NCBI GenBank assembly: GCA_902496295.1
Contig: CABVAF010000003.1
Coordinates: forward strand, 3,356-67,355
Direction of reading: 5' to 3'
DNA: 64,000 bases
From: an uncultured Clostridium sp.
GTDB lineage: Bacteria > Bacillota > Clostridia > TANB77 > CAG-508
How positions within the stretch are numbered: the first letter of the stretch is position 1; each line of letters begins with the position of its first letter. The translations under genes and the position numbers were made by a program. The notes beneath the pieces were generated by a model that made no database searches, was not told the origin of the DNA, and saw only the letters and a list, made by a program, of their open reading frames with translations. Below, in pieces: positions 25,463 through 53,217 of the stretch.

Positions 25463-25691
25463 CTCCCCTTAAGTTAATAAAATCAACATATATTTTACCA
25501 TGAAATTTTAACTTTGGCAAGTACTTAATACAAATTTAATAATGAGTAAAAGCATGTTTAAGCTAAAATTAATATATTAGGTAAAAAATACGCCTAACAT
25601 AAAAAAACGACTTGCAAAAAGTTAAAAAAACATATATAATTAAAATAACTCACAAATGACAATCATATAAATTTTGGAAGGAGCGATTTTT

Positions 25692-26225
25692 ATGAATATA
25701 AAAATAACAGGAAAAGAGTTAAAAGCTACAGAAGCAATAAAAGATTATATTGAAAAGAAAGCAGACAGATTAGTAAAATATTTTGGAGAAGAGTTTGACT
25801 TATATGCAACAATTAAAACAGAAGGAGCAGAGCAAATTGCAGAAATGGATGTAACAGCAGGAAGCGACAGATTAAGAGCAGTTACAGCACATAGAGATTT
25901 GTATGCATCTATAGATAAAGATATAGACATATTAGAAGGTCAAGCAAGAAAAGTTAAAACAAAAAAAGATAAACAAAATATGACAGAATCAATTAGAATG
26001 AAAGAAACTTTAAGAGCAGAAGAAGAACATGAAGTAGAAGGAGAAATATTAAAAACTTTATATTATGAAATAAAACCATTAGCGCCAGAGGATGCTAAAC
26101 TAAAATTAGAAGAAAGACCACAAGATAGATTTTTAGCATTTATTAATTTAGAAAATAATAAAGTAAATGTAATATATCGTTTAAAAGATGGAAAGAATTT
26201 TGGTTTAGTTGAACCAGAAGCATAA
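25692..26225 (+). CDS. hpf: ribosome hibernation promoting factor, long form
   Basis: Begins MNIKITGKEL with a GGAAGGAG RBS and carries the C-terminal dimerisation domain. The ORF track starts at the upstream TTG 25674. Confidence 0.8.
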   Translation: MNIKITGKELKATEAIKDYIEKKADRLVKYFGEEFDLYATIKTEGAEQIAEMDVTAGSDRLRAVTAHRDLYASIDKDIDILEGQARKVKTKKDKQNMTESIRMKETLRAEEEHEVEGEILKTLYYEIKPLAPEDAKLKLEERPQDRFLAFINLENNKVNVIYRLKDGKNFGLVEPEA

Positions 26226-26277
26226 ATAGAATAGTATATATTTATTATAATATATAGCTAATAATAAATAAAAAGGA

Positions 26278-26305
26278 CTGTGCAGAGATATTATCACTGC
26301 ACAGC
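26278..26305. terminator. GC-rich hairpin between hpf and the GC-rich ORF
   Basis: CTGTGCAG...CTGCACAG stem flanked by an A-run and a T-run. Confidence 0.6.
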
Positions 26306-26346
26306 CTTTTTGCTAGGAGAGAAAACTCTCCCTGAGAGTAGAGGCC

Positions 26347-26763
26347 TTAGCTTTTAAGCTCCACGTTGATAGCGATGAAGTTTTGTCCGTCTTCGGACTG
26401 TTCAAAAGAGAAACTCTTGACAAACTTGGGATCCGAAAAGTAACGCATTGCGTAGTCCAGAAAGGCACGCAAATCACCAAAAGTGGACACCATGTGAAAA
26501 CGAACGTAGGAACCGCTGGGAAGGTAAATATCCATACAGGAAATACCTTTCCCGTTGCTGGGAACGTAAAGCTTGTCCTCGATATACCGTCCTTCAGAAT
26601 TGAAACGATGGTAAAAACGAAGAACCGCCTCGCACGAATCAACGCTTCCAAGCGCGTCGATTTGCTCTTTCAGAGCCTTGGACTTTTTGCCCTTCATCTT
26701 GTGCAGCAAAACCCGGAACTGGGAACTGCTGACAATGGGGCTTCCTTCCAAAGATGGAAACAT
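26347..26763 (-). CDS. hypothetical protein encoded in a GC-rich (~48%) island
   Basis: 138 aa with RBS AGAGGT 8 nt upstream of ATG. The composition shift is confined to the CDS plus its 3-prime UTR. No recognisable family. Confidence 0.5.
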   Translation of the reverse strand: MFPSLEGSPIVSSSQFRVLLHKMKGKKSKALKEQIDALGSVDSCEAVLRFYHRFNSEGRYIEDKLYVPSNGKGISCMDIYLPSGSYVRFHMVSTFGDLRAFLDYAMRYFSDPKFVKSFSFEQSEDGQNFIAINVELKS

Positions 26764-26961
26764 TGCTGATTACCTCTTTTCTCTATATATTAGGCTAAAA
26801 GCCGTATATTTATTATATCACAAAAATATATATAAAACAAATATATTATAAAATTAATATAAAAACAATAAAACAAAATTCGACTAATTATACTATATTT
26901 ATCATTTTTTTGGTGTTATAATGTAGTTGTGTGTAAAATTTGAAAAAGAGGGGTATATTTA

Positions 26962-28080
26962 GTGAAAATACTGTTAGTTATAGACCAATATCAAAATGGA
27001 AATAATGGAACAACAATTTCTGCAAGAAGATTTGCGGAAGGTCTGCAAAAAAGAGGACATACAGTAACAGTACTTACAACAGGTCAAGAAGGAGAAAATA
27101 AATTTATAGTAAAAAGTTTAAAACTTCCTATAGGAATTTCTGGAATAATAAAATCGCAAGGAATGAATTTTGCTGTACCAGATAAAGAAATAATAAGAAA
27201 AGCGATGCAAGATGTAGATATAGTACATTTTTATATGCCATTTTGGTTATCAAGGACTGCTAAAAAAATCGCAGATGAATTAAAAATTCCAAATACAGCT
27301 GCATTTCATGTACAACCAGAGAATATAACTTATACTATAAAAATGGGAAATGTAAAATTATTAAATGATAAAATTTATGAAGAATTTAGAGATGACTTCT
27401 TTAATAAGTTTAACAGAATACATTGCCCAAGTGAATTTATAGCAAATCAATTAAGAGAGCATAATTATACAGCAAAATTATATGTTATTTCAAATGGAAT
27501 ACAAGATAAATTTAGACCACTACCAAAAGAAGAAAAGAGCAAATTTGTTGTTACTATGGTAGGAAGGTTATCAGGAGAAAAAAGACAAGATTTGCTTTTT
27601 GAAGCAATAAAAAAATCAAAATATGAAAAAGATATTCAACTTGTTTTGGCAGGCAAAGGGCCAAAATATAGACAGTATGTAAAAATGGGGGAAGGATTAA
27701 CTAATAAGCCAGTTATAGAGTTCTGTAATGAAGAACAATTATTAGATTTATTACATAAAACAGATTTATATGTACATACTTCAGATGCAGAAATAGAAGC
27801 AATATCTTGTATAGAGGCAATTGCTTGTGGTAATGTTCCTATTATTTCAAATAGTAATAAATCTGCAACTCCGCAATTTGCATTAGATGAAAGGAGTTTG
27901 TTTGAAGCAGGAAATAGCGATGACTTAGCAAAAAAGATAGATGCATGGTTAGATAATCCACAAGAACTTAACAACATGAGGAAAACATATGCTGAAAGTG
28001 CCAATAAATATAGAATAGAGAATAGTATGAAAAAAATAGAGGAGATGTTTGAAGATGAAATTGCTGAGAGGAGTAATTAA
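26962..28080 (+). CDS. GT4-family glycosyltransferase
   Basis: 372 aa. GTG start with a GGGG RBS. GT-B fold pattern ending in the E-x7-E region. Extended -10 promoter TGTTATAAT upstream. Confidence 0.75.
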   Translation: MKILLVIDQYQNGNNGTTISARRFAEGLQKRGHTVTVLTTGQEGENKFIVKSLKLPIGISGIIKSQGMNFAVPDKEIIRKAMQDVDIVHFYMPFWLSRTAKKIADELKIPNTAAFHVQPENITYTIKMGNVKLLNDKIYEEFRDDFFNKFNRIHCPSEFIANQLREHNYTAKLYVISNGIQDKFRPLPKEEKSKFVVTMVGRLSGEKRQDLLFEAIKKSKYEKDIQLVLAGKGPKYRQYVKMGEGLTNKPVIEFCNEEQLLDLLHKTDLYVHTSDAEIEAISCIEAIACGNVPIISNSNKSATPQFALDERSLFEAGNSDDLAKKIDAWLDNPQELNNMRKTYAESANKYRIENSMKKIEEMFEDEIAERSN

Positions 28081-28814: not shown

Positions 28815-29255
28815 TCAGCTGTTCGATTCGAGCGGTTCGAAGCGAGGTTCAGAAGTGGACCACACAACGCCTTGATTCGACATTGAGGCGTATACGGTCA
28901 AGCCGTTTTTCATAGGAACTTTTGCCGTATTGGCTGAAATGAAAACTAGCTTAGGCGAAGCTGCCTCGGAGCAAAAACAATCGCTGTAAAAAGTGAGTTC
29001 GTCCTTAGACTGATAACGAGTACCATCACTCCAGAAGTATATGGAGAGAAATTCGCTATCAGACGTTTCCAAACGACCTTGACACTCTTCAAGTTGGGCC
29101 GACAACGTTTCGTTTTCTTCTTGCAGGGAGTTGATTTGCTGCGTCAGTTCAGCGACAGGGTCTTGGATATCCTCGTTACTTTCCTCCTCGCACCCAGAAA
29201 GTGACAACGTCACAAACAGGGCACATAAAATTATGAACCAAACCCGTTTCCTCAT
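28815..29255 (-). CDS. lipoprotein with coiled-coil segment, GC-rich (~47%) gene
   Basis: Probable start MRKRVWFIILCALFVTLSLSGC (lipobox LSGC) with AAAGGA RBS. The ORF track extends it to 29309. Confidence 0.5.
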   Translation of the reverse strand: MRKRVWFIILCALFVTLSLSGCEEESNEDIQDPVAELTQQINSLQEENETLSAQLEECQGRLETSDSEFLSIYFWSDGTRYQSKDELTFYSDCFCSEAASPKLVFISANTAKVPMKNGLTVYASMSNQGVVWSTSEPRFEPLESNS

Positions 29256-37897: not shown

Positions 37898-38893
37898 TTA
37901 CTTGTAGATATGGACAATCCCAGGTCCACCAGCGGAAATCATGGAATTGTCATACCAGATGTTCAGTCCGAACGCTTCTACGACGAAGCGAGCGGGCACC
38001 AGGGTGCGATTCCCAGAAATCATTGGAGCAACCGCCATTTGCAGCCACTTACCGTCATACCGCATATATGGATATGCGATATAGAGGTTAATAACGTGGC
38101 TCCTATTGGAGATGTTCACCTGCTGAGCTTGTCCGCCAACCCACTTAACATCGTAGCCAAGCATATCACCAAGGCTGTACACTGGAATCATGGTGTATCC
38201 CGGATCCACCACAATGGGTTGCTGGTCAGGGAAGTTTACGCGCTCCCCGTTCAACATAACGATAATCGGCGTGCGACCATCGTTGTTGATAAATACGCTA
38301 TCATCATAACGATAGTACTTGTATCCTAGAGCTGTTGCCCACTGCTGAAGAGTCTGATAAGTGGTATTGGCGTTCGAAGGAACCGTTCCGAAAATTGCCT
38401 TCAAACTATCGGTTTGAGGGTAGTTGACGTAGACGTTGGAGTCATTGCTGCCAAAACGATAGGCAGCATTGGAAACGTAATAACCGTTCCTGTACACCTT
38501 TACGGTGTTGATAAATGGCTCATCATCGTCATAGTCAGGATCGTCAAGAACCGGATCGTCGTAATCTCTACCGTCCGAGTAGAGATATACTTTATTATTT
38601 TTCACGTTGAAATCATAGCCAAATTCGTCTGCCCAATCACTCAGGCAAACATCATCCTTGGGGCTGGCGCTGAGCACGTCCTCGGTTTCGTCCGGAAAGA
38701 TTTTACGAATGTCATCCCAGGACTCCACCCAGACATCGTCGTGCCGGTCAAGGTAAGCGTTGTTTACGCCAGTGTAGTCGTTGTCAACGTACACCTTCAT
38801 GGAGCCACTTGCAGCAAATGCCACAGTGCTCATGGAGAAGACCATAACTACCGCAAGAAGGGTAGAGATAGCCCGTTTGATGTTCTTAAACAT
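37898..38893 (-). CDS. secreted protein with C-terminal copper-amine-oxidase N-terminal-like (Cu_amine_oxidN1) domain; GC-rich (~50%) gene
   Basis: Signal peptide MFKNIKRAISTLLAVVMVFSMSTVAFA. C-terminus ...APMISGNRTLVPARFVVEAFGLNIWYD matches the stalk-domain pattern. RBS GAAGGAGG. Confidence 0.6.
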   Translation of the reverse strand: MFKNIKRAISTLLAVVMVFSMSTVAFAASGSMKVYVDNDYTGVNNAYLDRHDDVWVESWDDIRKIFPDETEDVLSASPKDDVCLSDWADEFGYDFNVKNNKVYLYSDGRDYDDPVLDDPDYDDDEPFINTVKVYRNGYYVSNAAYRFGSNDSNVYVNYPQTDSLKAIFGTVPSNANTTYQTLQQWATALGYKYYRYDDSVFINNDGRTPIIVMLNGERVNFPDQQPIVVDPGYTMIPVYSLGDMLGYDVKWVGGQAQQVNISNRSHVINLYIAYPYMRYDGKWLQMAVAPMISGNRTLVPARFVVEAFGLNIWYDNSMISAGGPGIVHIYK

Positions 38894-42527: not shown

Positions 42528-43715
42528 ATGAAAATGAATAGCTCACTTATACGGTTGATTTCCATTGGTTCGCTAGATGCAATAAAAGATATATACCTAA
42601 ATATATTTTTAATTGCGAGAATTTACGACCTGGCAGACAACGCAACAAAAACAATTGCACTATATTACATTATCGAGTATGCATGTATTGCAATTACAAT
42701 GATAGTAGGAGGGAATTATTTTAAACAAAAACCCAACAATGGTTTAAGAGTTGGCATGATGGTAAACCTTATATTGCTACTTTTTATCATGAGACTAGAT
42801 GACCAAATAATTGTATACTATCCAATTGTAGCCTGTATCTTTGGGATTGCCATGGGGACTTATTATGGACCTATGCAGGTATTGCTTGGACATTTCGCTG
42901 ATGCAGACTCTGTAGGATACAGTACAATATCCACCATGTTATACAATATTGTTAATATTGTATTTCCAATTACTATCGGTGCTTACATTGAAACAACGTC
43001 TTTCTTTTCAGTAACATTATGCATGGTAGTTGTTACGAGTATCGAGATGCTACTATCTTTGGGAATTTCTAAAATACAGAATTCACAGAAATGTAATTTA
43101 TATGCTTTTCTTAAAGTCCTTAAGGACAATAGGAATTACAAAATTATCAATGTTTATGTTATCGTGTTCCTAAAGGGAATTACATCATCAGTATTGGATC
43201 GGACAGTTTTAATATTGATAATGATGATGTTTGGTAGTATCATGCAACTCGGAATATTGTCAACTATTTTTTCTATATTTACCGTGACAGCTAGTTGGAT
43301 AGTAAAAAAGCTATGTAAGGGAGATATTAAGAAATGGTTGATCAAAATTTCAGCAATCATGCCGATGCTAGCCGTTATATTGCTAGTAATCAATACAAGC
43401 ACAGAAACGTTTATCCTGTATAAGGCTGTGTCAGCAACATTTATTTGTATACTATCAGTTTTGGCTGATGCTAGTCGGTATAATACGATAGGAGACCTTA
43501 AGAAAACATATGCAGCAGAGCATCAAAATTTGTCAGAACTTTCGTTAGCAGCAGGAAGAATAACAGGTTTGACAATTTTGATAATAGTAAATGAATTTAT
43601 TGGAGGGCTAATTGCAATTAAGGCAATGTTGTTAATTATAGGAATGGTTATAATAGCATATGCATCTTTTATTGCAAAAGGACAGAATTACGACAACGTT
43701 ATGGAGGTGAAATAA
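42528..43715 (+). CDS. polytopic membrane protein (transporter-like)
   Basis: 395 aa with about 10-12 TM segments. Confidence 0.4.
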   Translation: MKMNSSLIRLISIGSLDAIKDIYLNIFLIARIYDLADNATKTIALYYIIEYACIAITMIVGGNYFKQKPNNGLRVGMMVNLILLLFIMRLDDQIIVYYPIVACIFGIAMGTYYGPMQVLLGHFADADSVGYSTISTMLYNIVNIVFPITIGAYIETTSFFSVTLCMVVVTSIEMLLSLGISKIQNSQKCNLYAFLKVLKDNRNYKIINVYVIVFLKGITSSVLDRTVLILIMMMFGSIMQLGILSTIFSIFTVTASWIVKKLCKGDIKKWLIKISAIMPMLAVILLVINTSTETFILYKAVSATFICILSVLADASRYNTIGDLKKTYAAEHQNLSELSLAAGRITGLTILIIVNEFIGGLIAIKAMLLIIGMVIIAYASFIAKGQNYDNVMEVK

Positions 43716-52830: not shown

Positions 52831-53217
52831 ATGGTAAATATGGAACCCAAGCAGGCAGAGGTAATGAAGCAGCTGCACGAAATGCGGAATAAAGGCCACT
52901 TTTCCAGCATCGAGATGGAGGAGGAGAGCCTTTGGATGGAGGTAACGGAATTGCTCCGTACCACCATTCTCTTCAGCGAAGCGCCCCTCATGCGGGCCAA
53001 GATCATGATTTTCCAGAATTGGGACAAGGTAAACCTGAGTTATCGCCTGGGTGGCGACGACAAGTCGCTGGTACGCCAGTTCGCGCTGGAGTACAGCCCC
53101 AATCGCATCAGACAGTTGGAAAACCGTGCCATCCGGAACGGTTACAAGACCAAGTATAGCCCGCCGGACGCGGATTACAAGGCAGGACTTCTCGAAATCG
53201 AGCTTGATCTCGCCTAA
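52831..53217 (+). CDS. hypothetical protein encoded in a GC-rich (~50%) island flanked by inverted repeats
   Basis: 128 aa with RBS AGAGGA. Extended -10 TGTATAAT at 52763-52770 and GC-rich terminator at 53274-53303. My manual count places the ATG one nt earlier than the ORF track. Confidence 0.5.
   Translation: MVNMEPKQAEVMKQLHEMRNKGHFSSIEMEEESLWMEVTELLRTTILFSEAPLMRAKIMIFQNWDKVNLSYRLGGDDKSLVRQFALEYSPNRIRQLENRAIRNGYKTKYSPPDADYKAGLLEIELDLA

Follow-up and report, generated by a model that had tools for sequence, protein, structure and literature searches.

Does a GC-rich gene that stands out sharply from an AT-rich genome have to be a recent arrival? The question is raised by a locus in an uncultured Clostridium sp. 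(GTDB lineage Bacteria; Bacillota; Clostridia; TANB77; CAG-508), in a stretch of 64,000 nucleotides (assembly GCA_902496295.1, contig CABVAF010000003.1, positions 3,356 to 67,355) that was analysed whole and that we call the window; all coordinates below are those of the window. The host is related to 'Clostridium sp. CAG:273', a lineage of human-gut Clostridia that has not been cultured. Here, a gene for a 138-amino-acid (aa) protein (26347..26763, minus strand, stop codon included), which we refer to as the island gene, lies convergent to hpf (25674..26225, plus strand) and, as an earlier note on this DNA had stated, divergent from a glycosyltransferase family 4 (GT4) gene (26962..28080, plus strand). 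From the composition of the island gene, the same note had proposed a recent horizontal acquisition. We show that the anomaly is genuine and that it recurs at the same site in all sampled members of the genus. The comparison with relatives that the note had called for thus returned uniform presence with similar composition and, therefore, the recent transfer it had proposed is not supported. Our data instead make it probable that we are dealing with an orphan gene confined to one genus, which was gained or born ahead of the radiation of that genus, has been passed on vertically ever since, and is evolving fast.

The compositional anomaly is both strong and sharply bounded. GC content is 0.465 over 26278-26763, against 0.285 for the whole 64-kb window; it stands at 0.463 in the coding sequence (26347-26763) and at 0.478 in the 3' untranslated region (26278-26346), compared with 0.197 in the upstream spacer (26764-26961) and 0.115 at 26226-26277. 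In 30-nt steps, GC runs at 0.43-0.57 within the coding sequence and drops to 0.27, 0.20, and 0.03 in the steps immediately preceding the ATG. The GC-rich island described in the earlier note is therefore confirmed, as is, to within about 30 nt, its placing of the composition jump at the start codon, while its figure of about 48% GC was slightly high (46.5% measured). Only 26 of 1271 sliding 486-bp windows reach a GC content of at least 0.44, and these form four islands across the 64 kb. The codon adaptation index, a check that the note had asked for, is strongly atypical at 0.229, against a mean of 0.725 (sd 0.038) for 30 host genes of the window (z = -13). Additionally, GC at third codon positions (GC3) is 0.56 in the island gene and 0.10-0.23 in host genes, the share of A at third positions is 0.12 against about 0.5 in the host, meaning that A-ending codons are nearly absent, and the CpG odds ratio of 1.11 reveals no depletion, in contrast to values of 0.24-0.46 for the host.

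This anomaly extends to the relatives of the window species. We fetched sister loci via the neighbouring GT4 protein, that is, blind to the island gene, and found in all four sister species (L011, L012, L013, and L020; GT4 88-90% identical) the order hpf, an open reading frame (ORF) of 136-137 aa, and GT4, with ORFs of 38-46% GC in loci of 26-29% GC. GC enrichment is a feature of all members of the family (37-47% vs 26-29%), the undepleted CpG and the scarcity of A-ending codons likewise recur in all lineages, and every other member with a readable context lies tail-to-tail with hpf, the exception being L043, a 1.2-kb contig that ends before hpf. No empty hpf/GT4 junction was seen among the contexts read. 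In the next clade out, whose GT4 is about 77% identical, nadD precedes GT4, and a profile of the family found nothing in 28 nadD-GT4 loci of this more distant clade. Therefore, the island gene is diagnostic of a single genus-level clade, and its site coincides with a break in synteny. At the other end of the scale, L001 is 100% identical to window positions 16347-36763, its sequence stopping short of island 3 (described below), and the identical 138-aa protein was found in 33 blocks of public assemblies.

Within this constant setting, the protein itself has changed quickly. Between species, the island protein is only 26-45% identical, whereas Hpf is 93-98% and GT4 88-91% identical. The divergence starts at the ATG and extends through the 3' hairpins, whose pairing is kept while their sequences differ. 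Close pairs are informative as to how this came about. Between L020 and L049, the third-position difference at identical residues is 0.14 in the island gene and 0.08-0.13 in the flanks, with amino-acid identities of 81% and 94-99%, respectively; between the window and L043, the third-position difference is 0.26 in the island gene and 0.21 in the flanks, with identities of 75% and 97%. The combination of a flank-like third-position difference and a much lower amino-acid identity argues for vertical descent under weak protein constraint, and, judging from these sequences, neither hypermutation nor repeated import appears to be needed to explain the divergence of the closest pairs. Within the CAG:273 species, nucleotide diversity (pi) is 0.0072 in the island gene vs 0.0006-0.0045 in the flanking genes, about 1.6-12 times as high, in a sample of 13 sequences taken via the leader motif described below and holding too few single-nucleotide polymorphisms to be polarised. 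Among the exact-protein loci of the window species, a biased sample, there was no excess of such polymorphisms that would point to local hypermutation.

The minus frame is a real coding gene under purifying selection. An ORF of 136-142 aa is retained in 12 of the 12 divergent orthologues collected, the ratio of nonsynonymous to synonymous substitution rates (dN/dS) is 0.12-0.18 in the closer orthologue pairs, and AlphaFold, run on a 14-sequence alignment, returned a confident fold (predicted local distance difference test, pLDDT, 86.1; predicted template modelling score, pTM, 0.76). In this alpha/beta fold, a strand and a helix are followed by six strands, a second helix, and two further strands. 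The protein has no signal peptide and is cytoplasmic. Three ORFs overlap here, as had been listed before: besides the 138-aa frame, there is a 112-aa ORF on the same strand (26313..26651) and a 128-aa ORF on the plus strand (26383..26769). The assignment of the gene to the minus strand in the earlier note agrees with our data, and so does its view that the extra ORFs are by-products of composition. TTA, CTA, and TCA make up just 2%, 4%, and 4% of their codon families in island genes, and their rarity on the sense strand is what keeps the plus-strand ORF free of stops; its start is offset by 36 nt from the end of the coding sequence, a multiple of 3, and it is therefore the codon-aligned antisense frame. 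Its length in four other species is 77, 149, none, and 93 aa. The possibility that this plus-strand frame is the coding one, on which the note had made its own view depend, is rejected given this lack of conservation across species.

The signals around the coding sequence are those of an ordinary monocistronic gene, which occupies 26278-26840 on the minus strand. We place its promoter, as read from the sequence, at 26812..26840, where a perfect -10 hexamer, TATAAT (26817 to 26812), joins a -16 element, TGTG (26822 to 26819), in an extended -10, TGTG-A-TATAAT, spanning 26822 to 26812; a -35-like hexamer, TTGTTT (26840 to 26835), lies across a 17-nt spacer. The block is conserved in five species, while the coding sequence is not. 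A consensus promoter scan did not list it because the -35 agrees at only 3 of 6 positions, and it is on the strength of the perfect extended -10 that we regard it as a putative sigma-A-type promoter. From the position of the -10, transcription is predicted to start near 26805, which would give a 5' leader of about 42 nt (26764..26805) that opens with a small hairpin, GGC-UUUUA-GCC (26803 to 26793), and carries a Shine-Dalgarno sequence, AAGAGGT (26778 to 26772), 8 nt ahead of the ATG (26763). The presumed 5' end of the leader, GGCTAAAAGCCGTATA (26793-26808), is invariant in five species whose coding sequences are only 26-45% identical, and it may act as a 5' stabilising hairpin or as a regulator site. 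A longer pattern built on this motif led to 15 further metagenome loci, 14 with full-length orthologues and one with a fragment cut by the contig end.

Downstream, two hairpins follow the gene. The proximal one (26315..26339, minus strand), just past the stop codon, is terminator-like and pairs as GGGAGAG/CUCUCC or, alternatively, as ACUCUC/GAGAGU; other species retain it via different sequences, such as GGACAC..GTGTCC and AGAGCAC..GTGCTCT. The distal one (26271..26311, the inverted repeat I2) has 20-nt arms that are 85% complementary, and is conserved in L013 and L020 as ACTGCACAG...CTGTGCAG. With an A-run at one edge and a T-run at the opposite edge, it can, as far as the sequence tells, act on both strands as a bidirectional terminator common to the island gene and the convergent hpf. 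The earlier description of a single gene with a good ribosome-binding site and a double-hairpin terminator, in which a host-like promoter and ribosome-binding site precede a foreign-like coding sequence, is thus borne out.

What the protein does is less readily told from its relatives. The earlier note found it unrecognisable, and searches against known families, sequences, and folds were likewise empty: the 138-aa protein has no match in Pfam, NCBIfam, PHROG, or PADLOC, no sequence match in the PDB, and no Foldseek match against the PDB or BFVD; tblastn against phage and plasmid records gave no match, and a literature search turned up nothing relevant. In a collection of 5.8 billion proteins, the family makes up 24 clusters, and in one of 1.84 billion it has 4 representatives; all homologues stem from one genus-level clade. 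It is therefore an orphan family, confined to a genus-level clade of human-gut Clostridia near 'Clostridium sp. CAG:273'. No catalytic motif was found in the protein, and there is no operon partner, toxin, or partner gene nearby and no match to a defence system; the sole constant neighbour of the island gene is the convergent hpf. Our guess, made with low confidence, is that the product is a non-essential, stand-alone cytoplasmic protein of a binding or adaptor type rather than an enzyme. In one cluster of the family, P0022, on a 597-bp contig, the GT4 N-terminus (MKILLVIDQYQNGNNG...) runs into the last two thirds of the island protein, a fusion that probably reflects chimeric assembly across the promoter region between the two divergent genes.

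The island gene, hereafter also island 1, has company in the window. Island 2 (28815..29255, minus strand; GC 0.465, GC3 0.50), downstream of plsC, encodes a 146-aa lipoprotein with the lipobox LSGC and a coiled coil. It is found in L013 (7608-8048) at 64% identity and is absent from L011, L012, and L020, while L014 (3624-4103) and L016 (7953-8432) carry a different GC-rich ORF of 159 aa at the same site. The strain L002 differs at 11 of 441 island 2 positions, compared with at most 0.5% in GT4, plsC, and sasp. Island 3 (37898..38893, minus strand; GC 0.48, GC3 0.57) encodes a secreted protein of 331 aa whose C-terminus carries a Cu_amine_oxidN1 domain. Island 4 (52831..53217, plus strand; GC 0.53, GC3 0.73) encodes a 128-aa protein that has no Pfam match and belongs to an orphan family of 13 clusters; its AlphaFold model has a pLDDT of 71.5 and no fold match in the PDB. 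Island 4 occupies a constant site, between mscS and a response regulator gene, in four species, with a GC3 of 0.52-0.73 vs 0.12-0.16 in the flanks and a protein identity of 66-78% vs 94-99% for the regulator. It repeats the pattern of island 1, being syntenic and fast-evolving across species. The two protein families are not kin, a relationship we rejected on an hhalign probability of 0.2%, and no promoter or leader motif is common to the four islands.

Smaller departures from host composition occur in the gene for a 150-aa protein made up of a Spo0A_C domain alone (10168-10620, plus strand; GC3 0.41), a 395-aa ORF with no Pfam match (42528-43715, plus strand; GC3 0.31), and a 78-aa ORF (858-1094, plus strand; GC3 0.31). 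The atypical GC3 values of the window thus form a series of 0.31, 0.31, 0.41, 0.47, 0.56, 0.57, and 0.73, against 0.10-0.23 in about 50 host genes, a gradation to be expected if genes had been acquired repeatedly, at different times or from different sources. The neighbourhood also varies. In a strain of the window species (L003, 9074-11547), a DDE_Tnp_1 transposase gene and ORFs of 65, 59, and 164 aa are inserted between hpf and rpsT. In the species of L045, one contig (L046, 1-3263) keeps the hpf side of the island gene unchanged and has, in place of the GT4 side, a helix-turn-helix protein, large ORFs that lack annotation, and a DUF6809 protein. In L012 (4256-4477), tRNA-Gln and tRNA-His genes stand upstream of hpf, where other species have rpsT.

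The simplest explanation of the island gene is that it was acquired, or came into being, at the root of the genus. It would have entered or arisen once, at the synteny breakpoint, before the clade radiated, would have been placed under a host-type promoter, and would have been inherited vertically from then on, its atypical composition being a long-lived relic of its origin that decays slowly at most; it would belong to a set of genus-specific, single-gene, GC-rich genes, at least four of which lie in the window. A horizontal origin before the radiation of the genus is possible. That this organism imported a single foreign gene recently would fit the GC3, the undepleted CpG, the codon adaptation index, and the sharp edge at the ATG, as well as a 13-bp direct repeat, TATATTTATTATA, whose only two copies in the window lie on either side of the segment (26237-26249 and 26805-26817, the right copy overlapping the -10 box; expectation 0.14 per window, P about 0.005 with local composition). 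However, each species of the genus that was sampled has at this site an orthologue with the same anomaly, these orthologues having diverged to 26-45% identity, and no homologue exists outside the genus, so that we regard a recent import as highly improbable. The repeat was also considered as a target-site duplication and rejected in that role: it is present in the window species only, and a repeat as old as the radiation of the genus would no longer be intact, and we therefore treat it as chance or lineage-specific. A different history would make the locus a replacement hot spot, in which old, divergent alleles kept by balancing selection are exchanged through homologous recombination in the hpf and GT4 flanks, as might suit an immunity-type or phage-interaction protein. 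The divergence is indeed limited to the coding sequence and the 3' hairpins, with promoter, leader, and flanking genes 85-98% identical, and the raised pi within the CAG:273 species points the same way, as does an incongruence in which the window is closer to L044 than to L043 in the flanks (third-position differences of 0.10-0.13 and 0.21) and closer to L043 than to L044 in the protein (75% and 57-59% identity). Yet this incongruence rests on flank fragments of only 84-180 codons, synonymous divergence tracks the flanks in most close pairs, and the dN/dS carries no sign of diversifying selection; moreover, there is no PADLOC match and no toxin or partner gene nearby, and the GC-richness is left unexplained. 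We consider recurrent allele exchange very improbable as the general explanation. Lastly, since a known RNA motif occurs near hpf (raiA) in other Firmicutes, the position of the GC-rich segment beside this gene could suggest a structured non-coding RNA, or else a real gene in the plus-strand ORF. The full transcript does fold at z = -7.5 against dinucleotide shuffles, a value that takes in two terminator hairpins and a composition step. With the coding sequence alone and synonymous shuffles, z shrinks to between -0.6 and -4.8 across orthologues, and host controls lie at -2 to -3. Rfam gave no match in the window at the gathering score and only chance-level matches at E up to 1 (the best in 26100-27000 having E = 0.061 and 16.5 bits vs a threshold of 100 bits), and RNAalifold found no consensus structure or covariation in 11 orthologues (-2.8 kcal/mol, 21 scattered pairs). 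A structured RNA was rejected on these grounds, and with a conserved minus-frame ORF at a dN/dS of about 0.15, a confident protein fold, and a plus-strand ORF that is not conserved, we give this explanation almost no weight.

An early origin followed by vertical inheritance has evidence to contend with as well. Because no donor or homologue outside the genus was found, a horizontal origin is argued from composition alone, and there is no conserved mobility signature, with no recombinase nearby and no tRNA within the window. Between the window and L044, the third-position difference is 0.43 in the island gene and 0.10-0.13 in the flanks, which strict vertical descent would not predict; such deviating pairs, for which the flank fragments are short, leave room for occasional allele exchange. 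Furthermore, a two-state non-stationary likelihood model on the third positions of the 12 orthologues favours an equilibrium GC3 of about 0.46 over decay to the host value of 0.13 (twice the log-likelihood difference 25.3, against a maximum of 4.0 in 24 parametric bootstraps), which counts against a passively decaying relic. These last results raise the possibility that a mid-GC, rare-codon composition is actively maintained in the island gene and its sister islands, through selection that acts on the mRNA or at synonymous sites, for instance for translation gated by a rare tRNA or for a stable, RNase-resistant message. Several observations agree with maintenance. GC3 remains at 0.38-0.56 in all 12 orthologues, despite synonymous sites at or near saturation between species; the likelihood model is compatible with stationarity (twice the log-likelihood difference 1.0); polarised third-position changes are balanced, at 39 GC-to-AT and 43 AT-to-GC, where simulated neutral decay under the host bias gives at least 3:1; the coding sequence folds more stably than its synonymous shuffles in 5 of 7 orthologues (z -2.9 to -4.8); and the window species has the highest GC3 for both island 1 and island 4. 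In addition, codon 17 of the gene (26713-26715) is CGG in 11 of the 11 orthologues that have Arg there, whereas CGG accounts for none of the 12,291 codons of 30 host genes and for 10 of the 77 Arg codons at other positions of the family. The codons of I87 (ATT) and L136 (CTT) are also invariant in orthologues, and other conserved residues use mixed codons. As for the decoding of CGG, the window and the fetched loci, which cover part of the genome, contain no tRNA-Arg gene, tRNA-Arg(CCG) included.

These indications lose much of their force in controls. In GT4, the same likelihood model gives an implausible root of 0.06 and an equilibrium of 0.50, a spurious non-stationary fit that weakens the test, and GT4 has an apparent 4-5-fold excess of AT-to-GC over GC-to-AT changes, so that both the flux and the likelihood results are unreliable. 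More broadly, in all species compared, the polarised third positions of hpf and GT4 have an apparent AT-to-GC excess of 2-5-fold, which is probably an artefact of saturation or fast sites, though larger than equilibrium simulations predict. With a control gene showing that the methods are confounded by fast sites, we do not claim maintenance. Host control genes already fold at z -2 to -3, two of the orthologues reach only -0.6 and -1.0, the RNAalifold consensus given above offers no conserved RNA structure, and islands 2 and 4 have no excess folding. A rough calibration from flank divergence further indicates that the present values could have been reached by decay from a root GC3 of about 0.65-0.75, and hence both the decay and the maintenance readings survive. 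On the whole, we see active maintenance as a tentative proposal that is unlikely to hold. We are somewhat more doubtful still of its wider form, in which the genus would carry a class of genes whose mid-GC, rare-codon composition is permanently upheld in a genome of 27% GC. Across species, the class would be represented by islands 1 and 4, with islands 2 and 3 as possible further members. The cause would then be selection on the message, which could take the form of rare-codon gating at the invariant CGG17 or of a long-lived, RNase-resistant mRNA, or else a gene-specific bias in mutation or repair. If true, a foreign-looking composition would mark function, not history, and composition actively maintained in several unrelated genes would be a rare bacterial case of gene-specific selection or mutational bias acting on synonymous composition. 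As it stands, we retain an orphan gene that dates from before the radiation of the genus as the preferred explanation.

How, then, does the island gene compare with systems already described? It shares with fast-evolving small immunity and anti-phage proteins its small size, cytoplasmic location, lineage specificity, rapid divergence, and a strong promoter of its own; unlike them, it has no PADLOC or PHROG match and no partner toxin or system genes, and its dN/dS is well below 1. GC-rich structured RNAs of AT-rich Firmicutes, which include the raiA motif (near raiA/hpf), OLE, ROOL, and GOLLD, offer a second parallel, in that the island is likewise a GC-rich intergenic island of about 500 nt with strong predicted folding, in a very AT-rich genome and beside hpf. 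In contrast to these RNAs, it has no Rfam match or covariation and holds a selected ORF with a confident protein fold. In Streptomyces, rare codons can gate expression, TTA codons depending on the bldA tRNA. The island gene resembles such bldA-gated genes in being built of host-rare codons, the invariant CGG17 included, and differs from them in that the bias spans the whole coding sequence rather than one or two codons.

The closest comparison is with the atypical single-gene islets and ORFans that the Lawrence-Ochman framework attributes to horizontal transfer followed by amelioration. Like ORFan islets, the island gene is single and short, deviates in GC3, codon, and dinucleotide usage, is restricted to a narrow lineage, and evolves faster than its neighbours. 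It departs from this picture in several respects. ORFans are usually AT-richer than their host, whereas the island gene is GC-richer. Rather than patchy, the island gene is fixed and syntenic genus-wide, and it has no integrase, tRNA, or conserved repeats. Moreover, unlike in ameliorating islets, its anomaly has persisted until protein identity fell to 26-45%. The island gene represents a new, uncharacterised, genus-restricted protein family of a kind that is already known, the compositionally atypical orphan gene. It also carries a caution for the reading of such loci: a sharp compositional island need not imply recent transfer, since the anomaly here is genus-wide and old.

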